Notes under the pieces: generated by a model
What the model was told of the DNA's origin: nothing
The model's input: only the letters and a program-made list of their open reading frames with translations
Database searches by the model: none
Made by a program: the position numbers and the translations under genes
Assembly (NCBI RefSeq): GCF_044324785.1
Contig: NZ_CP172127.1
Source of the DNA: Escherichia coli
Lineage (GTDB): Bacteria; Pseudomonadota; Gammaproteobacteria; Enterobacterales; Enterobacteriaceae
Length of the DNA: 64,000 nt
Strand: one strand, 5' to 3'
Shown: positions 9,487 through 17,229 of the stretch, piece after piece
How positions within the stretch are numbered: position 1 is the stretch's first letter
Layout: each line of letters begins with the position of its first letter

Positions 9487-11832
9487 ATGTCATCAACTAA
9501 TTTCAGCCAGATTGCAGCCTTCCTGTGGTCTGTCGCCGACCTGTTACGCGGCGATTTTAAACAATCACAATATGGACGAATTATTCTTCCTTTTACCCTT
9601 TTGCGTCGTCTGGAATGCGTACTCGAAACAACGAAAGACGCGGTCATTACCGAGGCGCAAAAAGTAAAAGCCATGAAACTGCCGGAGGAAGCCCAGGAGA
9701 AAATGATCCTGCGGGCGACTAATGGCCTCACGTTCTTCAATGCCTCAGCGATGGATCTCAGCAAAATGGGGCAAAATGGCATACAGGACAACCTGGAAAA
9801 CTACATCCAGTCGTTCTCTTCGGATGCCCGCGAAATTTTCGAACACTTCAAGTTCAGCGAGTTTGTCGGACAGCTGGCGGATGCAAACTTACTGTTCAAA
9901 GTGGTGCAAATATTCGCTAAAGCAGATTTATACCCGGAGCACGTCACCAACCACGATATGGGGCTGGTATTTGAGGAGCTGATCCGACGTTTTGCCGAGA
10001 GTTCTAACGAAACCGCCGGGGAGCACTTTACCCCGCGTGATATCGTCAATCTGACCACCTCGCTGGTGTTTTTCGATGATGATGATGCACTCAATAAAGA
10101 CGGCATCATCCGCACCATTTACGACCCAACAGCAGGAACCGGCGGCTTTCTCTCTTCCGGCATGGAGTACGTCCACAAACAAAACCCCAATGCCGTGATG
10201 CGCGCGTTTGGTCAGGAGTTAAACCCGGAATCCTACGCCATCTGCAAAGCCGACATGCTGATTAAGGGCCAGGACGTCAGCCTTATCAAACTCGGCAACA
10301 CCCTTTCCAACGATCAACTCCCCGCAGAAAAATTCGATTACATGCTCTCTAACCCACCTTTCGGCGTGGACTGGAAAAAGATCGAATGCGACATCAACGA
10401 CGAGCACAAACTCCAAGGTGCTGATGGCCGCTTTGGCCCCGGCCTGCCCCGCGTCTCCGACGGTTCGTTGCTGTTTCTGCTGCACCTGATCAGCAAAATG
10501 CGCGATGCCAAAAGCGGTGGTGGGCGGATCGGCATCATTCTTAATGGCTCTCCGTTATTCACCGGCGGCGCGGGCAGCGGTGAAAGCGAGATCCGCCGCT
10601 ACATTCTGGAAGCGGATTTGCTGGAAGGCATTATCGCCCTGCCCACCGACATGTTTTACAACACCGGTATCGCTACCTATGTGTGGATTTTGTCGAATAA
10701 AAAAGCGCCTGAGCGCAAGGGCAAAGTCCAGCTTATCGACGCTAGCAACCTGTGCGGCAAGATGCGTAAATCGCTGGGGTCAAAACGCAATATTCTCGGG
10801 GAGGAGGATATTGGTTTAATCACCCGCACGTTTGGCGATTTCGAACCCGTTGCCACCACTACGCTTGCGGCGTTAGGCCTGGAGAAAGCACCCGAACAAA
10901 AATCCAGCCGGGGACGCCAGCCCGCAACAACCAAAACCGAGGCGGCAAAAACTTTTGCCAGCAAAGTCTTTCACAGCACCGAGTTTGGCTATCGTCGCAT
11001 CACCGTTGAGCGCCCGTTGCGCCTGTCGGCTCAGATAAGTGATGACGCCATTGCCACATTGCGCTTTGCGCCGAAGCCGTTTATCGCTCCGATGGCGCAA
11101 CTGTATGACGCCTTTGCTTTCCAGTGGCAGGACGGTCATTACGGCGACTTAACAGCGGTAGAAAGTGAAGCCCGCGCCATTCTTAAAGCCGATTTTAGCG
11201 AGCTGAAAGAGAAGCAAATTAAAGATCTGCTCAACAGCAAATTATGGCTGGCCCAGCGCGGGTTAATGGAAAAAGCGCGGCGTATTCAGGCGGCGATGGG
11301 TATGCAGGCGGGCGGCAAAGACACCGTTAGCAATGACTTTAATCAGTTCCAGTTGACGCTGAAAGAGGCGTTCAAAACCGCAGGCGTGAAGCTGGATGCG
11401 AAAGAGAACAAGCAGTTTATTGATGCCATTACCTGCAAAAACCCGGATGCCGAACCAGTTATCAGCAAGGTACTGAAAGAAGCAGCCCAACCGTTGTACG
11501 GCGCGTTTGAGTACCACGGAAAGGTTGTGGAGTTTGAGCCGGATGGCGACCTGCGTGATAACGAGAATGTGCCGTTAAATCCGGCGGTATCTACCAGCGA
11601 GTTGATCGAGGGTTACTTCAAAGCAGAAGTATTGCCGCACGTCGCGGATGCGTGGATTAACGCCGATAAGCGCGATGCGAAAGATGGGGATATCGGGATT
11701 GTGGGGTATGAAATTCCGTTTAATCGCCATTTTTATGTTTATCAACCGCCAAGGCCGCTGGAGGAGATTGATGCGGATCTGGATGCGGTAAGTGCTGAAA
11801 TTATGAAACTGTTGCAGGAGGTACATTCCTGA
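9487..11832 (+). CDS. hsdM: Type I restriction-modification DNA methyltransferase subunit HsdM (N6-adenine, NPPF motif) with long C-terminal extension
   Basis: 781 aa from ATG 9487 (AAGGA upstream); AdoMet motif [10 protein letters not shown] and catalytic [11 protein letters not shown]; about 230 extra C-terminal residues compared with HsdM sizes I recall; stop overlaps hsdS start (TGATG). Confidence 0.85.
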
Positions 11833-13115
11833 TGGCTACATACAAAAACTATCAACAAACCAATTTGTTAGGATTAGAAATACTTCCATCTCATTGGGAA
11901 GTAAAAAAAATTAAGCATCTATTTTCAATTGGTCGAGGTAGAGTCATATCTCAAGCGGAATTAGAAGATGAAGGTATGTATCCAGTATACTCATCGCAAA
12001 CACATAATGATGGATGCTTAGGTTATATTAATAGCTATGACTTCAATTGTGAGCAAATTACATGGACTACGGATGGTGCAAATGCTGGAACTGTTTTTCT
12101 TCGGAAAGGCAAATATAACTGCACAAATGTATGTGGAACATTACAACCAATAAATAAAGAAAACTTTTTACAATTTCATTTATATTGCTTGCAGTACATC
12201 AATCAATTTCATAAGCGCCCTGATACTAATGGGGCGAAGATAATGAATAATGAGATGGCCGAAGTATATATTCCACTACCTTCTAACCAAGAGCAATTAC
12301 GAATCACCACCTTCCTCGACCACGAAACCGCAAAAATCGATAACCTAATCGAGAAACAACAACAATTTATTGAACTATTGAAAGAAAAACGTCAGGCCGT
12401 GATTAGCCATGCGGTGACAAAAGGGCTAAATCCTGACGTGCCGATGAAAGATTCTGGAGTTGAGTGGTTGGGAGAAATGCCTGAACATTGGCATTTTACT
12501 CGAGCTAAATTTGTTTCAAACATATTTGTTCCGCAACGAAATAAGCCAGAGTTAAATGATGACATTGGTATTTTTTGGATAACAATGGAAAACATGAGTC
12601 AACCATATATAACATCTTCCTTTCAATATGTTTCTGACGTTGCAGCACTAAAATCAGGCTCAAAGATATTACCAAAAGGAGCCGTAATAGCCAGCTGCGT
12701 TGGTAATTTTGGAATTGCTGCAATCAATGAGGTCGATGTTATTATCAATCAACAATTGCAAGCATTTCAGACCTTAAGTATAAAGGCCGATTTTCTCATG
12801 GCTTTAGTTTCTATTTCTAAAAAGTATTTTGAAATCATTGGCACCGCTGCAACCCTTGCATATGTAAATAAAGAAGGTTTTGAAAATCTTCCTGTTGTTA
12901 TTCCATCGGAAAATGAACAAATTAATATTTGTAAATACATTAGAGATAAAAATAAAAAGTTTGAAATATTGATTGAGCGTTCCATGCACCAAATTGAGTT
13001 ACTCCAGGAACGCCGCACCGCCCTTATCTCCGCCGCCGTCACCGGCAAAATAGATCTCCGCAACTGGACCGCCCCCATCGCCAAAACGGAAGCACCCACG
13101 GAGGCCAGCGCATGA
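11832..13115 (+). CDS. hsdS: Type I restriction-modification specificity subunit HsdS
   Basis: 427 aa; two AT-rich variable regions (putative target-recognition domains) separated by a GC-richer central conserved block (LRITTFLDHETAKIDNLIEKQQQFIELLKEKRQAVISHAV) and a C-terminal conserved block (LLQERRTALISAAVTGKIDL); start/stop coupled to hsdM and hsdR. Confidence 0.8.
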   Translation: MATYKNYQQTNLLGLEILPSHWEVKKIKHLFSIGRGRVISQAELEDEGMYPVYSSQTHNDGCLGYINSYDFNCEQITWTTDGANAGTVFLRKGKYNCTNVCGTLQPINKENFLQFHLYCLQYINQFHKRPDTNGAKIMNNEMAEVYIPLPSNQEQLRITTFLDHETAKIDNLIEKQQQFIELLKEKRQAVISHAVTKGLNPDVPMKDSGVEWLGEMPEHWHFTRAKFVSNIFVPQRNKPELNDDIGIFWITMENMSQPYITSSFQYVSDVAALKSGSKILPKGAVIASCVGNFGIAAINEVDVIINQQLQAFQTLSIKADFLMALVSISKKYFEIIGTAATLAYVNKEGFENLPVVIPSENEQINICKYIRDKNKKFEILIERSMHQIELLQERRTALISAAVTGKIDLRNWTAPIAKTEAPTEASA

Positions 13116-16100
13116 ACAACGACATTACAAAAGAGCTCAACCTGCAAAACGACATCATCGCCCAGATGGTGGAAAAAGGCTGGATTGTCGGCAAAGGTGA
13201 CGGCTACGACCGGGAACGTGCGCTATACGCACAAGACGTTCTGCACTTTGTGCAAACCACCCAACCGCAAGAGTGGGAGAAATTCGCCCGCGTTTACCCC
13301 AACGACAACGAACGCCATTTCCTCGACGCGCTGGTTGCGCAGTTAAAAAAAGCCGACAGCAACGCCACCGACATCCAGTCGCGCACCTGGGGTACGCTCG
13401 GCGTACTTCGCCACGGACTGAAAATCCGCAATGCCCGTTTTTCGCTGTGTCAGTTTAAACCGGAACATAATCTCAACCCGGAAACGCTGGCGCGCTATCA
13501 GCAAAATATCTGCCGTATCGTGCCGGAACTGGTCTACAGCCCGTATGCCTCAAATAGCGTCTTTGCAGAAACGGGCGTGAAAGCCAAAAAATGGCGTATC
13601 GATCTGGTGCTGTTTATCAACGGCCTGCCGATTGCCACGCTGGAGCTGAAATCCGAATTTAAACAGGCGGTGCAGAACGCCATTGCCCAGTACAAAAAGA
13701 CCCGCCTGCCGAAGGATCCCGCGACCAATAAACCCGAACCGCTGCTGACCTTTAAGCGCGGCGCGCTGGTGCATTTTGCCGTCAGCCAGTATGACGTCTT
13801 TATGACCACCAAACTCGCGGGTGACAGCACCTTCTTCCTGCCGTTTAACAAAGGCACCAAAGACGGCGGCGCAGGCAACGAGATCCCCGAAGATACCCAC
13901 CGCTACGCCACAGATTATCTGTGGAATGAAGTGCTGCTGCCGGACAACTTATTAAAAATCCTCGCCAGTTTTGTCCATTTGCATATTGAAGAAAAAGAGG
14001 AGTGGAACGGGCTGAAAGCGAAGAAAGAGAGCCTGATTTTCCCGCGTTATCATCAGTGGGATGTGGTCAACAAACTGCTGGAGGCCGCGACGATTGAAGG
14101 AACCGGCCATAAATACCTGATCCAGCACAGCGCCGGTTCCGGTAAATCGAACTCCATTGCCTGGACCGCCCACCAGCTTTCTCGTCTGTACGACGTGAAC
14201 GGGGAAAAACAGTTCCACTCCATTATCGTGGTGACGGACCGCACGGTGCTGGACGACCAGCTTCAGGACACCATCTGGCAGTTCGAACATGCCGACGGCG
14301 TGGTCGGGCGCATCAATAACAGAGAGGGCGACGGCTCTAAATCGGAAAAGCTCGCCAACGCGCTGGAAAACTCGCAGCCGATAATCATCGTCACCATCCA
14401 GACATTCCCGTTCGTGCTGAAAGCCATCGAAAACAGCGTCAGCCTGAAGCAGCGTAAATACGCGGTGATTGCCGACGAAGCACACTCCTCGCAGAGCGGT
14501 TCTACCGCCCGTCAGCTTAAAGAAGTGCTGATGAGCGAAGAAATGGATGATGACTTGGTACTGTCGTCAGAAGATATCCTGGATGCGACCATTGCCGCCC
14601 GGAAAGGCAGCAGTAACCTGAACTACTACGCCTTTACCGCCACGCCAAAATCCAAAACCCTCGAACTTTTTGGTCGCCGTCCACGTCCCGATGAACCGGC
14701 GTCAAAAACCAATAAACCTGAGGCCTTCCACGTCTACTCCATGCGCCAGGCAATCGAAGAAGGCTTTATCCTCGATGTGCTGAAAAACTACACCAACTAC
14801 AAAGTGGCGTATCAGTTGCTGCAAAAGCTGGTAGACAAGGACCGCGAAGTCGACAGCAAGAAGGCAAAGATAAAGCTCAACCTGTGGGTGACACTGCACG
14901 ACCACAATATTTCGCAGAAGGTGAAGGTGATTGTGGAGCACTTCCGCAAACATGTGATGCATCTGCTTGGTGGCCAGGCCAAAGCGATGGTGGTCACCAG
15001 TTCGCGTAAAGCCGCCGTGCGCTATAAGCTGGCATTTGATAAATACATTAGCGAGAACAATTACCAGAAAATCAGCGCGATGGTGGCGTTTTCCGGGGAA
15101 GTTGAATTCCGGGAAGGCGACCATAACAGCCTGGCATTGTTAAACCAGAAATTTACTGAAATAAACATGAACCCCGGCCTAAAAGGGCGGGATATGCGCA
15201 AAGCCTTCGACAGCGATGATTATCAGGTCATGCTGGTTGCCAATAAATTCCAGACCGGTTTTGACCAGCCGAAGCTGTGCGCGATGTACGTGGATAAAGC
15301 CCTCGGCGGCGTCGAGTGCGTGCAGACGCTCTCCCGCCTGAACCGCACCTATCCGGGCAAAGCGGAATCAGGCACTTTTGTCCTCGATTTTTATAACGAT
15401 CCGGGCGAGATCCTCGGCGCATTCCAGCCCTATTTCCAGACGGCGGAACTGACCGATGTCAGCGATCCGCAGCAGGTATTCGATCTGTTTGAAAAACTGC
15501 GCGCCACGCAGATTTTTCAGTGGCATGAAGTCGAGCAGTTCTGCGAGGCGTACTTCATCAAAAATAAATCGAATGCGGCGATCAGTAATATCTGTAAACC
15601 GGCGGTCGAACGCTGGAAAAAGCGTTATCTGATGGCAATAGACGCCTATTTGACCGCCAAAGAGATGTTCGAGCGCACTAAAAAAACGGGCGATACGGTG
15701 TTAATAACCAATGCGGAAAACAGTTTTAAAGCCTGTAAGCAGGAGAAAGATCGTCTGGAGATTTTCAAGAAAGATCTCGGCAGCTTTGTTCGCTTTTATG
15801 AGTTTATGTCGCAAATCGTTGAGTACGATGACAAGGATCTGGAAAAGCTAAGCCTGTTTGCGCGCCATTTACGCCCACTGCTGCATGAGCAACGTCTGGA
15901 AGAGGATGAAATTGATCTCAGTAATGTGGAGATGAGTCACTATCGTTTATCGAAAATCCATGAGCAAGATTTACGCTTACAGGAAGAAACGTCTGACTAT
16001 ACGCTGGATGCAAGTAATGATATTGGTACGGCAAAAGCGAAAGATAAAAAAGAGGAGTTTTTATCGCAGGTGCTTTCTCGGATGAATGAATTATTCATTA

Positions 16101-16375
16101 GCGACCATTTGACCGACAAAGATATGATCAGCAATGCTTTTGCGGTGTATAACAAAATAACTGAAAATGAAAATGTTATGACACAAATTAAAAACAATCC
16201 GCCAGAACAAGCGATTCTTGGTGACTTCCTCCAGGCAGTTGATAATGCTGTAATGGACAGTAATGACGCTCGGCAAGAATTTATGTTGCAATATTTATCC
16301 GATCCAGCTCGGGCAAAGGGCTTTGCTTATCTGATGTTTGATATGCTAACGGGGAAAATTGCTTTGCCAACATAA
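13112..16375 (+). CDS. hsdR: Type I restriction endonuclease subunit HsdR (helicase-nuclease)
   Basis: 1087 aa; helicase motif I (HSAGSGKSNSIAW) and DEAH box (VIADEAHSSQSG); ATG overlaps hsdS stop (ATGA). Confidence 0.85.
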   Translation: MNNDITKELNLQNDIIAQMVEKGWIVGKGDGYDRERALYAQDVLHFVQTTQPQEWEKFARVYPNDNERHFLDALVAQLKKADSNATDIQSRTWGTLGVLRHGLKIRNARFSLCQFKPEHNLNPETLARYQQNICRIVPELVYSPYASNSVFAETGVKAKKWRIDLVLFINGLPIATLELKSEFKQAVQNAIAQYKKTRLPKDPATNKPEPLLTFKRGALVHFAVSQYDVFMTTKLAGDSTFFLPFNKGTKDGGAGNEIPEDTHRYATDYLWNEVLLPDNLLKILASFVHLHIEEKEEWNGLKAKKESLIFPRYHQWDVVNKLLEAATIEGTGHKYLIQHSAGSGKSNSIAWTAHQLSRLYDVNGEKQFHSIIVVTDRTVLDDQLQDTIWQFEHADGVVGRINNREGDGSKSEKLANALENSQPIIIVTIQTFPFVLKAIENSVSLKQRKYAVIADEAHSSQSGSTARQLKEVLMSEEMDDDLVLSSEDILDATIAARKGSSNLNYYAFTATPKSKTLELFGRRPRPDEPASKTNKPEAFHVYSMRQAIEEGFILDVLKNYTNYKVAYQLLQKLVDKDREVDSKKAKIKLNLWVTLHDHNISQKVKVIVEHFRKHVMHLLGGQAKAMVVTSSRKAAVRYKLAFDKYISENNYQKISAMVAFSGEVEFREGDHNSLALLNQKFTEINMNPGLKGRDMRKAFDSDDYQVMLVANKFQTGFDQPKLCAMYVDKALGGVECVQTLSRLNRTYPGKAESGTFVLDFYNDPGEILGAFQPYFQTAELTDVSDPQQVFDLFEKLRATQIFQWHEVEQFCEAYFIKNKSNAAISNICKPAVERWKKRYLMAIDAYLTAKEMFERTKKTGDTVLITNAENSFKACKQEKDRLEIFKKDLGSFVRFYEFMSQIVEYDDKDLEKLSLFARHLRPLLHEQRLEEDEIDLSNVEMSHYRLSKIHEQDLRLQEETSDYTLDASNDIGTAKAKDKKEEFLSQVLSRMNELFISDHLTDKDMISNAFAVYNKITENENVMTQIKNNPPEQAILGDFLQAVDNAVMDSNDARQEFMLQYLSDPARAKGFAYLMFDMLTGKIALPT

Positions 16376-16440
16376 AAATACGTTAATAGCCGGGGTCGTA
16401 CTTTCTACCCCGGCCATATTATTTACAATAAGGAATAGCT

Positions 16441-17154
16441 ATGCTGAAGATGATTAAAGATTTTAAATTCAAAAAATACATTAAAAAATTACGTGAAGAA
16501 GGTTTGTTATTTTATGTTTCTTTCGGGTTTATATTTACATTGTTAATGGAAGTTGATGATCGATTACCGTACTATCTTCAACAAGACTTCTTTTTTGATA
16601 CACTTATAGGATTTATGCCAATCAATATATTCTTTGTTTTGATTTGCACATATATATTTTTCAATGCCGTCCATGCGCTTATTTCACCCTATAAATTTCA
16701 AAGAATTGGTGAGAAATTCCTCTCTGAACTTGATAAAAGAACACAACAAATTGGCTTTATTATTTCATTCATATGTTTTGGCATGACTTTGTTTTGTGCA
16801 CTGGTGTGGTTGCTGTTTTTTGAGATGAATACTGAAAGTTACTACGCAAAATATACATTAATTTTTTTGGCTGTTTTTATCATTATGATTATGTTTTCTT
16901 CAGCAGTTAATCCAGTAATGAACAGAATATCACAAAAAATTAAGGAATCGGACTCACATGGAAATTCAAAAATAATTCTTATAATTATAATCATTACATT
17001 ATCGCTATTATTACCAATTGCGTGCATTATCAATAAAAATAAAACAATTGAAATCAATATCAAGAAAGAAACTTATCAGCAAATAAAAGAAAAAACAAAA
17101 ATGAAACCAGAGGATTATATCAAAAAATTGATTACTGATATTAAATTCAACTAA
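16441..17154 (+). CDS. Hypothetical AT-rich integral membrane protein (about 5 predicted TM segments) downstream of hsdR
   Basis: 237-aa ORF with AAGGA Shine-Dalgarno; very AT-rich by eye; hydrophobic stretches FYVSFGFIFTLLM, INIFFVLICTYIFF, IGFIISFICFGMTLFCALVWLLFF, LIFLAVFIIMIMF, IILIIIIITLSLLLPIACII; no recognisable family. Confidence 0.5.
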   Translation: MLKMIKDFKFKKYIKKLREEGLLFYVSFGFIFTLLMEVDDRLPYYLQQDFFFDTLIGFMPINIFFVLICTYIFFNAVHALISPYKFQRIGEKFLSELDKRTQQIGFIISFICFGMTLFCALVWLLFFEMNTESYYAKYTLIFLAVFIIMIMFSSAVNPVMNRISQKIKESDSHGNSKIILIIIIITLSLLLPIACIINKNKTIEINIKKETYQQIKEKTKMKPEDYIKKLITDIKFN

Positions 17155-17158
17155 TATC

Positions 17159-17192
17159 TATATGTACCCTGGTTTCTTCCAGGGTACATATA
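17159..17192. terminator. Perfect 14-bp-stem hairpin between convergent membrane-protein gene and yjiS (candidate bidirectional terminator)
   Basis: TATATGTACCCTGG tttctt CCAGGGTACATATA. Confidence 0.4.
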
Positions 17193-17229
17193 AAAAGTTA
17201 ATATCCTGATTTATTCTCAACATCCTCTA

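Follow-up and report, generated by a model that had tools for sequence, protein, structure and literature searches.

Escherichia coli chromosomes carry different restriction-modification (R-M) genes in their immigration control region, and the question raised by the present allele is whether its hsdM, hsdS and hsdR genes represent an unusual type I system or a member of a described family, and what the very long C-terminal part of its modification subunit might be. The analysis covered a window of 64,000 nucleotides from E. coli contig NZ_CP172127.1 (assembly GCF_044324785.1). We conclude, with a probability of about 0.88, that the locus is a functional chromosomal type I R-M system, that it fills the variable slot in the immigration control region, and that it belongs to a very large, already annotated family.

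An intact M-S-R operon in the immigration control region

The cassette is located in the segment from yjiA to yjiS/yjiR and comprises, on the + strand, hsdM (9487–11832; modification subunit, 781 aa), hsdS (11832–13115; specificity subunit, 427 aa) and hsdR (13112–16375; restriction/translocase subunit, 1087 aa). All three genes are intact and together contain the full set of catalytic motifs; Pfam, NCBIfam and the PADLOC models MTase_I, Specificity_I and REase_I identify them as the adjacent M, S and R genes of a type I system. The genes are coupled by overlapping stop and start codons, with an overlap of 1 nt between hsdM and hsdS (...TCC TGATG GCT) and of 4 nt between hsdS and hsdR (...GC ATGA AC), so that ORFs, Pfam matches and junctions agree with the initial annotation of a type I system coupled in M-S-R order. 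The hsdM reading frame is open from 9478 or 9487 and ends at 11832; we used the ATG at 9487, which yields 781 aa, lies 8 nt downstream of a Shine-Dalgarno sequence, AAGGAA, and is also the start in the RefSeq annotation of strain N3. The GC content of hsdS is 35%, versus ca. 54% in hsdM and hsdR.

Upstream of hsdM, an AT-rich intergenic region (9203–9486), which includes the Shine-Dalgarno sequence at 9471–9476, separates the operon from a divergent GmrSD gene. The operon promoter is presumably located in this region, in which a consensus scan of the + strand retrieved no strong sigma-70 match.

The first half of HsdM is that of a typical gamma-class N6-adenine methyltransferase. Pfam assigns residues 9–143 to the N-terminal helical domain HsdM_N (9511–9915; PF12161, E 8e-27) and residues 155–455 to the methyltransferase domain N6_Mtase (9949–10851; PF02384, E 4e-58), the two matches spanning residues 9–455, and motifs I (DPTAGTGG) and IV (NPPF) occur at residues 213 and 289, respectively. 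An AlphaFold2 model of the full-length protein (pLDDT 93, pTM 0.89) showed the corresponding fold, and its Foldseek matches included PacII, 3LKD and the HsdM of EcoR124I, with coverage limited to the N-terminal half.

HsdS matches Pfam Methylase_S in two stretches and PADLOC Specificity_I (E 5e-104). Compared with the HsdS of another E. coli carrier, the centre of the protein (residues ca. 159–218) is near-identical and the C-terminal tail (397–427) identical, while both target recognition domains (TRDs) diverge. This alignment shows the classic pattern, in which the helical regions are conserved and the TRDs are swapped between E. coli carriers. In our comparison of complete E. coli genomes, a near-identical copy of the present hsdS allele was found only in strain N3. 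HsdR contains the Pfam domains HSDR_N, SWI2_SNF2, ResIII, DEAD and T1R_D3-like, matches TIGR00348 (hsdR; E 2.5e-52), and carries the motifs of a PD-(D/E)xK nuclease (D164...ELK) and of an SF2 helicase (Walker A GSGKS at 342, DEAH at 455, TAT at 508 and QTLSRLNR at 738).

The system lies outside families IA to ID

By sequence, the system falls outside types IA, IB, IC and ID, with 22–27% identity. The K-12 allele at this locus, the type IA system EcoKI, with the order R-M-S, a separate hsdR promoter and an HsdM of 529 aa, has in common with the present system the defence island, the three-subunit architecture and the chemistry. Type IA was nevertheless ruled out, because gene order differs and the EcoKI M subunit (2ar0/2y7c) aligns only with HsdM residues 154–403 (E 1e-11); the in silico criterion for type IA is more than ca. 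90% identity of HsdM and HsdR to EcoKI (PMC5399793), and members of the type also complement EcoKI. Comparison with the genes of strain CFT073 ruled out type IB, the EcoAI family, in which HsdM is short and HsdS long (HsdM, 25% identity over 306 aa; HsdR, 22% over 252 aa); the CFT073 system is located at the same locus, and its HsdM and HsdS are of 489 and 589 aa versus 781 and 427 aa here.

Type IC systems have the order hsdM-hsdS-hsdR, in common with the present operon, although their HsdM is shorter (520 aa). Of the classical prototypes for which structures have been solved, EcoR124I comes closest in its HsdM core; yet the HsdM match involves the core only (residues 151–457, E 8e-26) and that of HsdR is restricted to a 65-residue stretch (E 3e-10), which rules out type IC. 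Moreover, type IC systems are borne on plasmids or in hotspot 37 and are absent from the immigration control region (PMC12707154). Type ID, which is defined by high similarity of HsdM and HsdR to StySBLI and EcoR9I, was suspected because the EcoSal Plus review names types IA, IB and ID, along with GmrSD and brnAT, among the contents of this island (PMC12707154). EcoMII from E. coli EC958, a type ID system that shares 92% identity with StySBLI in the R subunit, is in M-S-R order at the same locus (PMC4659465); it shares with the present system the location between yjiA and yjiS, the orientation and an HsdR of 1087 aa, but its HsdM, of 539 aa, does not have the C-terminal module described below. 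The two systems show 27% identity in HsdM, 24% in HsdR and 24%, over part of the protein, in HsdS; identities of 24–27% correspond to the level found between families, and type ID was thus ruled out as well. The present HsdM is therefore ca. 240–290 aa longer than the type ID and type IB subunits encoded at the same locus.

A widely distributed family with a long HsdM

HsdM had been described as about 230 residues longer than usual, and it is indeed much longer than its counterparts in EcoKI, EcoAI and EcoR124I; its length and the M-S-R order had been considered unusual. Database comparison showed the contrary, since both length and order are standard for a described family. HsdM aligns over its whole length with MTase_I model PDLC03029, which PADLOC derived from REBASE (residues 2–780 against positions 2–660 of 661, E 9.7e-281), while other long MTase_I models, of 810–932 positions, share with it just the first ca. 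455 residues. The search with HsdM retrieved at least 8,000 proteins at E ≤ 1e-10 (8,000 of the 8,000 candidates scored). Among the best 120 matches, all with 81–98% identity and distributed among E. coli, Salmonella, Citrobacter, Klebsiella, Serratia, Yersinia, Pantoea and Xenorhabdus, 115 are of 780–789 aa. Subunits of 780–787 aa with 81–85% identity thus occur across the Enterobacterales, and a 786-aa HsdM, 82% identical to ours, is common on Klebsiella chromosomes.

Gene order is equally conserved, and is in any case also that of EcoMII (PMC4659465) and type IC. M-S-R order was found in all five loci of relatives examined, each with an HsdR containing HSDR_N, SWI2_SNF2 and T1R_D3-like domains, and it is maintained in distant relatives of 40–46% identity as well as in plasmid relatives from Klebsiella (M, 675 aa; R, 1085 aa) and Vibrio; matches to at least 80% of HsdM were found in 692 plasmid records. 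Within E. coli, RefSeq annotates the same cassette as type I M, S and R subunits in 114 of 5,426 complete genomes (95–99.5% identity), and in other carriers the flanking order (brnA, Fic, GmrSD, M-S-R, membrane ORF, yjiS) is kept. In Citrobacter the cassette occupies the same slot, adjoining yjiA and brnTA. The hallmarks of the family are the order hsdM-hsdS-hsdR, stop codons that overlap the start of the next gene, an HsdM of ca. 660–800 aa and an HsdR of ca. 1,000–1,090 aa. The present system shares HsdM length and operon with the family of PDLC03029 and of the RefSeq 780–787-aa subunit M, and differs from it only in the TRDs of HsdS and hence, presumably, in specificity. In all, the cassette is already known: it is a further allele of the immigration control region, correctly called by standard pipelines.

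The C-terminal module of HsdM

Beyond the methyltransferase domain, HsdM continues with ca. 320 extra residues, which are a flexible linker followed by a family-specific folded module rather than an appended foreign domain. The linker (residues ca. 460–488; 10864–10950, + strand) is mildly basic (net charge +3), is predicted with low confidence in models of both the full-length protein (pLDDT 58–78) and the C-terminal part (51–55), and is confined to the closest relatives in an alignment of the family. The module (residues 489–781; 10951–11829, + strand) is predicted with a pLDDT of 91–98 and, given the pTM of 0.89 of the full-length model, probably packs in a fixed position against the core. 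It contains a beta element (residues 500–513), a variable helical sub-domain (ca. 517–648), the conserved elements E.D..LRD.ENVPL (684–697) and EV.PHV.DAWI (714–724), a further conserved element (739–758) and a terminal helix (758–780). F500, G501, R509, P510, D691, E693, W723, G740, Y741, E742 and R756 are invariant, and the conserved C-terminal motifs are common to relatives with 40–68% identity. With conservation values of 0.83 for the module and 0.89 for the catalytic core, the two are about equally conserved.

Residues ca. 460–781 yielded no match in Pfam (E ≤ 10), NCBIfam or PDB sequences, a structural search retrieved no solved PDB structure resembling the module, and its sole match in PHROGs was the unannotated family phrog_34860. 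Likewise, our literature search retrieved nothing relevant on long HsdM proteins or HsdM C-terminal extensions. The initial annotation had presented the extension as charged and of unknown function. Its composition is like that of the rest of HsdM (net charge −8; charged residues make up 28% of the extension and 25% of the catalytic domain), and domain prediction, while assigning no Pfam family, revealed the confidently folded, conserved module; as to function, it is true that there is no published description, but the family as such is already annotated as type I.

Several observations bear on the role of the module. [quoted passage not shown] The terminal helix showed no detectable sequence similarity to type ID HsdM tails, nor did we find between the HsdM tail and type IB HsdS the similarity expected from the model of Roberts et al. 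2012. Position, conservation and analogy suggest that helix 758–780 is most likely the functional counterpart of the C-terminal tail in canonical HsdM, packing on the HsdS coiled coil. For the rest of the module, the conserved beta core and the variable helical sub-domain, they point most likely to an M2S1 scaffold, a docking surface for the HsdR of the family, or both.

A membrane ORF downstream of hsdR

An ORF for a 237-aa multi-pass membrane protein (16441–17154, + strand; GC ca. 33%) starts 65 nt 3' of hsdR. Neither Pfam nor PADLOC nor PHROGs assigns it to a family, a homologue search found it restricted to Escherichia, and the number of complete E. coli genomes that contain it, 114, equals that for the cassette. 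A terminator scan detected no terminator-like site between hsdR and this ORF, which is probably co-transcribed with hsdR and is possibly an accessory gene of the cassette. An inverted repeat with a 16-bp stem (17157–17194), directly 3' of the ORF and also behind the convergent yjiS, likely marks where the transcription unit ends; the scan placed it on the − strand, and it would act on the + strand as well.

Discussion

In type I systems, assembly of M2S1 and R2M2S1 complexes, ATP-driven translocation and distant cleavage are established biology. By analogy, two HsdM and one HsdS would here form an M2S1 methyltransferase; the two TRDs of HsdS would recognise a bipartite target, in which one adenine per strand is then methylated. 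Binding of HsdR would then yield R2M2S1 which, on an unmethylated target, would translocate DNA with ATP and cut at a distance. What the data show directly are the genes present and their motifs, their conservation and distribution, and the predicted fold; enzymatic activity, like the roles proposed for the terminal helix and the rest of the module, is inferred.

Since types IA, IB, IC and ID are excluded by sequence, the only named enterobacterial family left is type IE, whose prototype is KpnBI from Klebsiella pneumoniae. KpnBI resembles the present system in being enterobacterial, chromosomal and unrelated to types IA to ID, and is possibly of the same family. According to Chin et al. 2004, the KpnBI hsdM is reportedly far longer than usual ('2631 bp'), overlaps hsdS by one base and shares with it one promoter upstream of hsdM. 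Long HsdM, 1-nt overlap and layout would in that case be published features of a named family, and the 786-aa HsdM so common on Klebsiella chromosomes is encoded by a gene of 2361 bp. Against this, the reported 2631 bp, if right, corresponds to 876 aa and not to 781–786, the PADLOC models of 810–932 positions that share only the first ca. 455 residues with HsdM do exist, and a name look-up found no KpnBI among the members of the HsdM cluster. Besides, types IA, IC, ID and IE have subunits of roughly equivalent length according to Roberts et al. 2012 (PMC3510504), which opposes a long HsdM in type IE. We consider the identity with type IE a real possibility, at slightly less than even odds.

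Whatever its family name, the system might differ from our reading in two other respects, both improbable. The C-terminal ca. 320 residues of HsdM could be an independent accessory domain, such as a sensor, a restriction-alleviation regulator or an anti-anti-restriction device, instead of a scaffold. The low-confidence linker dividing the module from the catalytic domain would suit this idea, as would the variability of the middle helical sub-domain (missing from members of 644–684 aa), the lack of matches to known folds or families, and the variable accessory genes gathered in the slot 3' of hsdR, which indicate that such cassettes do recruit extra functions. But the module is part of HsdM, and never a separate gene, in every locus examined, its stand-alone matches being short metagenomic fragments; it has no catalytic or ligand-binding signature; its conservation peaks at the extreme C-terminus, the part through which canonical HsdM binds HsdS; and the pTM of 0.89 suggests rigid packing with the core. 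We thus regard an accessory domain as unlikely. Less probable still is that the locus no longer restricts, being a remnant that is in decay or only methylates. Decay does affect defence genes nearby, since in strain N3 the GmrSD gene is split by IS4 and BrnT is truncated, and the sigma-70 scan detected no consensus promoter upstream of hsdM; yet none of the three ORFs is truncated, the motifs of nuclease, helicase and methyltransferase are all intact, and 114 genomes maintain the genes at 95–99% identity even as the TRDs of HsdS diversify, a pattern that marks an active system under selection.

The functional type I system favoured here has an HsdS specificity of its own, which is usual among type I systems, and the family of its HsdM is carried by enterobacterial chromosomes, Klebsiella IncF plasmids, Vibrio plasmids and some phages. 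This common family contains ca. 300 folded, conserved residues with no Pfam model, solved structure or published function. There is a small chance that residues ca. 489–757 are a structurally new domain; thousands of type I systems would then be assembled or controlled in another way than EcoKI and EcoR124I. If so, it might be, for instance, a dedicated docking platform for the HsdR of the family, or a switch for restriction alleviation or for resistance to DNA-mimic anti-restriction proteins. Mechanistic models of type I systems all derive from prototypes with a short HsdM, and the study of a long-HsdM system would show whether they can be transferred to this family.

An intact type I system with the gene order and HsdM length of its family

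ORF calling identified three tandem genes on the + strand, hsdM (9487-11832, 781 aa), hsdS (11832-13115, 427 aa) and hsdR (13112-16375, 1087 aa), just where the initial annotation had placed them. Reading of the sequence likewise bore out the two junctions it described, TGATG with a 1-nt overlap between hsdM and hsdS, and ATGA with a 4-nt overlap between hsdS and hsdR. An alternative in-frame ATG at 9478 would lengthen HsdM by three residues; the start at 9487, which has an AAGGAA Shine-Dalgarno sequence 8 nt ahead, is also the one chosen by RefSeq. The Pfam domains found in HsdM (HsdM_N, residues 9-143, and N6_Mtase, 155-455), HsdS (Methylase_S, in two stretches) and HsdR (HSDR_N, SWI2_SNF2/ResIII/DEAD and a T1R_D3-like domain) are consistent with the NCBIfam assignments of the three subunits. 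Catalytic motifs are unbroken in both HsdM (DPTAGTGG and NPPF) and HsdR (D164...ELK, GSGKS, DEAH, TAT and QTLSRLNR). The cassette is real and intact, an ordinary member of a widespread type I restriction-modification family that is annotated already.

[quoted passage not shown] It is also the order of the type IC system EcoR124I. The type ID system EcoMII, from E. coli EC958, occupies the same slot with the same orientation and M-S-R order as the cassette (PMC4659465); its subunits are of 539 (M), 434 (S) and 1087 aa (R), and its R subunit shows 92% identity with that of StySBLI (PMC4659465). The R-M-S order is seen only in the IA (K-12) and IB (CFT073) alleles.

HsdM is indeed longer than the textbook prototypes, although its length is not unusual. 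A search of 5.8 billion proteins retrieved at least 8,000 matches at E ≤ 1e-10; the best 120 of these are all 81-98% identical to the query. Of these 120, 115 have lengths of 780-789 aa, and the alignment spans the whole query in all except seven; their hosts include E. coli, Salmonella, Citrobacter, Klebsiella, Serratia, Yersinia, Pantoea, Xenorhabdus and Enterobacter. In PLSDB, proteins covering at least 80% of HsdM and of HsdR are found in 692 and 742 plasmids, respectively. PDLC03029, a PADLOC model for type I methyltransferases, covers HsdM from end to end (residues 2-780, E 1e-280). PADLOC also has several MTase_I models of 810-932 positions whose similarity to HsdM is confined to its first ~455 residues; there is therefore more than one family of long HsdM proteins, and they are already catalogued. 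In this family, both the length of HsdM and the gene order are the norm, and neither sets this system apart as had been proposed.

Relationship to described type I families

Type I families are set by complementation or, in silico, by HsdM and HsdR identities higher than ~90% (PMC5399793), and subunits from different families show 17-33% identity (PMC2481252). In our comparisons, HsdM and HsdR were 27% and 24% identical, respectively, to those of type ID from EC958, and 25% and 22% identical to those of type IB; with types IA and IC, HsdM aligned over the methyltransferase core only, and HsdR only over a helicase stretch of 65 residues. These low identities place the cassette outside types IA, IB, IC and ID.

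Membership of type IE, whose prototype is KpnBI from Klebsiella pneumoniae, is a lead and not a result, to which we give slightly less than an even chance. KpnBI reportedly has an unusually long hsdM with a 1-base overlap with hsdS and a single promoter ahead. The long-HsdM family is also frequent among Klebsiella chromosomes, where its protein has 786 aa, equivalent to a 2361-bp gene; however, the subunit lengths of type IE are described as "roughly equivalent" to those of types IA, IC and ID (Roberts et al. 2012, PMC3510504).

Chromosomal setting and accessory genes

The long-HsdM cassette is flanked by btsT, yjiX and yjiA and, at its opposite end, by yjiS, yjiR, an rpn-family gene and mdtM, a context that identifies the locus as the E. 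coli immigration control region. The nearest genome is that of E. coli N3 (99.5% identity), and the order yjiA, brnA(T), Fic-like gene, GmrSD, hsdM-hsdS-hsdR, membrane ORF, yjiS is a haplotype common to other carriers of the cassette. In N3, the BrnT toxin gene is truncated (L001, the N3 locus, 4436-4498; in the window, the region upstream of 6325) and the adjoining BrnA antitoxin gene is intact; the type ID allele of EC958 and the allele of Citrobacter retain both brnT and brnA, and the brnTA pair apparently forms a fixed border in several haplotypes of the immigration control region. Between brnA and GmrSD, and kept in other cassette carriers, lies the Fic-like gene (6325-7059, - strand, 244 aa), with a weak Pfam Fic match below the cut-off and a match to phrog_11900 (E 4e-42); a Fic gene is also directly upstream in L012, a distant long-HsdM relative. 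The gene divergent from hsdM (7103-9202, - strand) is intact and encodes a GmrSD-family type IV restriction enzyme of 699 aa, containing GmrSD_N, GmrSD_C and an extra C-terminal DUF5655; in N3 it is interrupted by IS4.

A multi-pass membrane ORF of 237 aa (16441-17154, + strand, ~33% GC) starts 65 nt downstream of hsdR, with no terminator-like site in between and a strong hairpin after it. The ORF matches no family in Pfam, PADLOC or PHROG, its homologues are essentially limited to E. coli and E. fergusonii, and the number of complete E. coli genomes with the ORF, 114, equals the number with the cassette. By analogy with PrrC and EcoPrrI, its product could assist the type I system, as an accessory protein or as a partner in abortive infection. 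Each related cassette has a different gene beside hsdR: a stand-alone DUF5655 gene downstream of hsdR in Citrobacter (L006 14977-15900), a gene for a 422-aa hypothetical protein on the Klebsiella plasmid (L002 11259-12527), a DarT/DarG-like DUF4433 and macro pair on the Vibrio plasmid (L003 13143-14307) and, between S and R, an SLFN/AlbA_2-HATPase gene in a distant relative (L010 10766-12409). This diversity suggests that the long-HsdM family has a variable accessory slot beside hsdR.

Divergence of HsdS

The GC content of hsdS is 35%, versus ~54% in neighbouring genes. In comparison with HsdS from another E. coli carrier, both target recognition domains are divergent, with a near-identical central region (~159-218) and an identical C-terminal tail (397-427); such divergence between conserved regions is the usual route of specificity change in type I systems. 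Two sharp GC troughs, at 12001-13000 (35%) and 16001-17000 (33%) versus ~50-55% around, coincide with the hsdS target recognition domains and the membrane ORF, consistent with a recent import of both segments.

A conserved C-terminal module in HsdM

For residues ~460-781 of HsdM, searches of Pfam, NCBIfam and PDB sequences gave no match. This extension was initially considered charged, which is not a distinguishing trait, with 28% charged residues versus 25% in the rest of HsdM and a net charge of -8. Using only the extension (residues 455-781) as query, an exhaustive HMMER search retrieved 2,402 clusters at 50% identity (E ≤ 1e-3), and full-length matches were 644-799 aa long, except for two HsdM-HsdS fusions of 1130-1148 aa. 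Conservation of the extension among close relatives (0.83) is on a par with that of the catalytic core (0.89).

The AlphaFold2 model of full-length HsdM, from a 150-sequence alignment, was confident (pLDDT of 93 and pTM of 0.89), and the model of the module only had a pLDDT of 91. After the catalytic domain, the full-length model shows a low-confidence, mildly basic linker (460-488), followed by the beta strands that open the module and carry [14 protein letters not shown] (500-513). A variable helical sub-domain (~517-648) is mostly absent from the members of 644-684 aa; the conserved alpha/beta part contains E.D..LRD.ENVPL (684-697), EV.PHV.DAWI (714-724) and [18 protein letters not shown] (739-758), and a long terminal helix (758-780) closes the module.

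The natural HsdM-HsdS fusions that occur in the long-HsdM family, together with the functionality of an engineered EcoKI HsdM-HsdS fusion (PMC3510504), argue that the HsdM C-terminus lies beside the HsdS N-terminus, from which we infer that helix 758-780 is probably an HsdS-binding tail. The remaining module probably serves as a scaffold in assembly or as the surface on which the family's own HsdR docks. We found no description of the module of the long-HsdM family in the literature, and no counterpart among solved structures. The interest that remains is modest, and resides in an undescribed module of a common HsdM family that is open to direct study.
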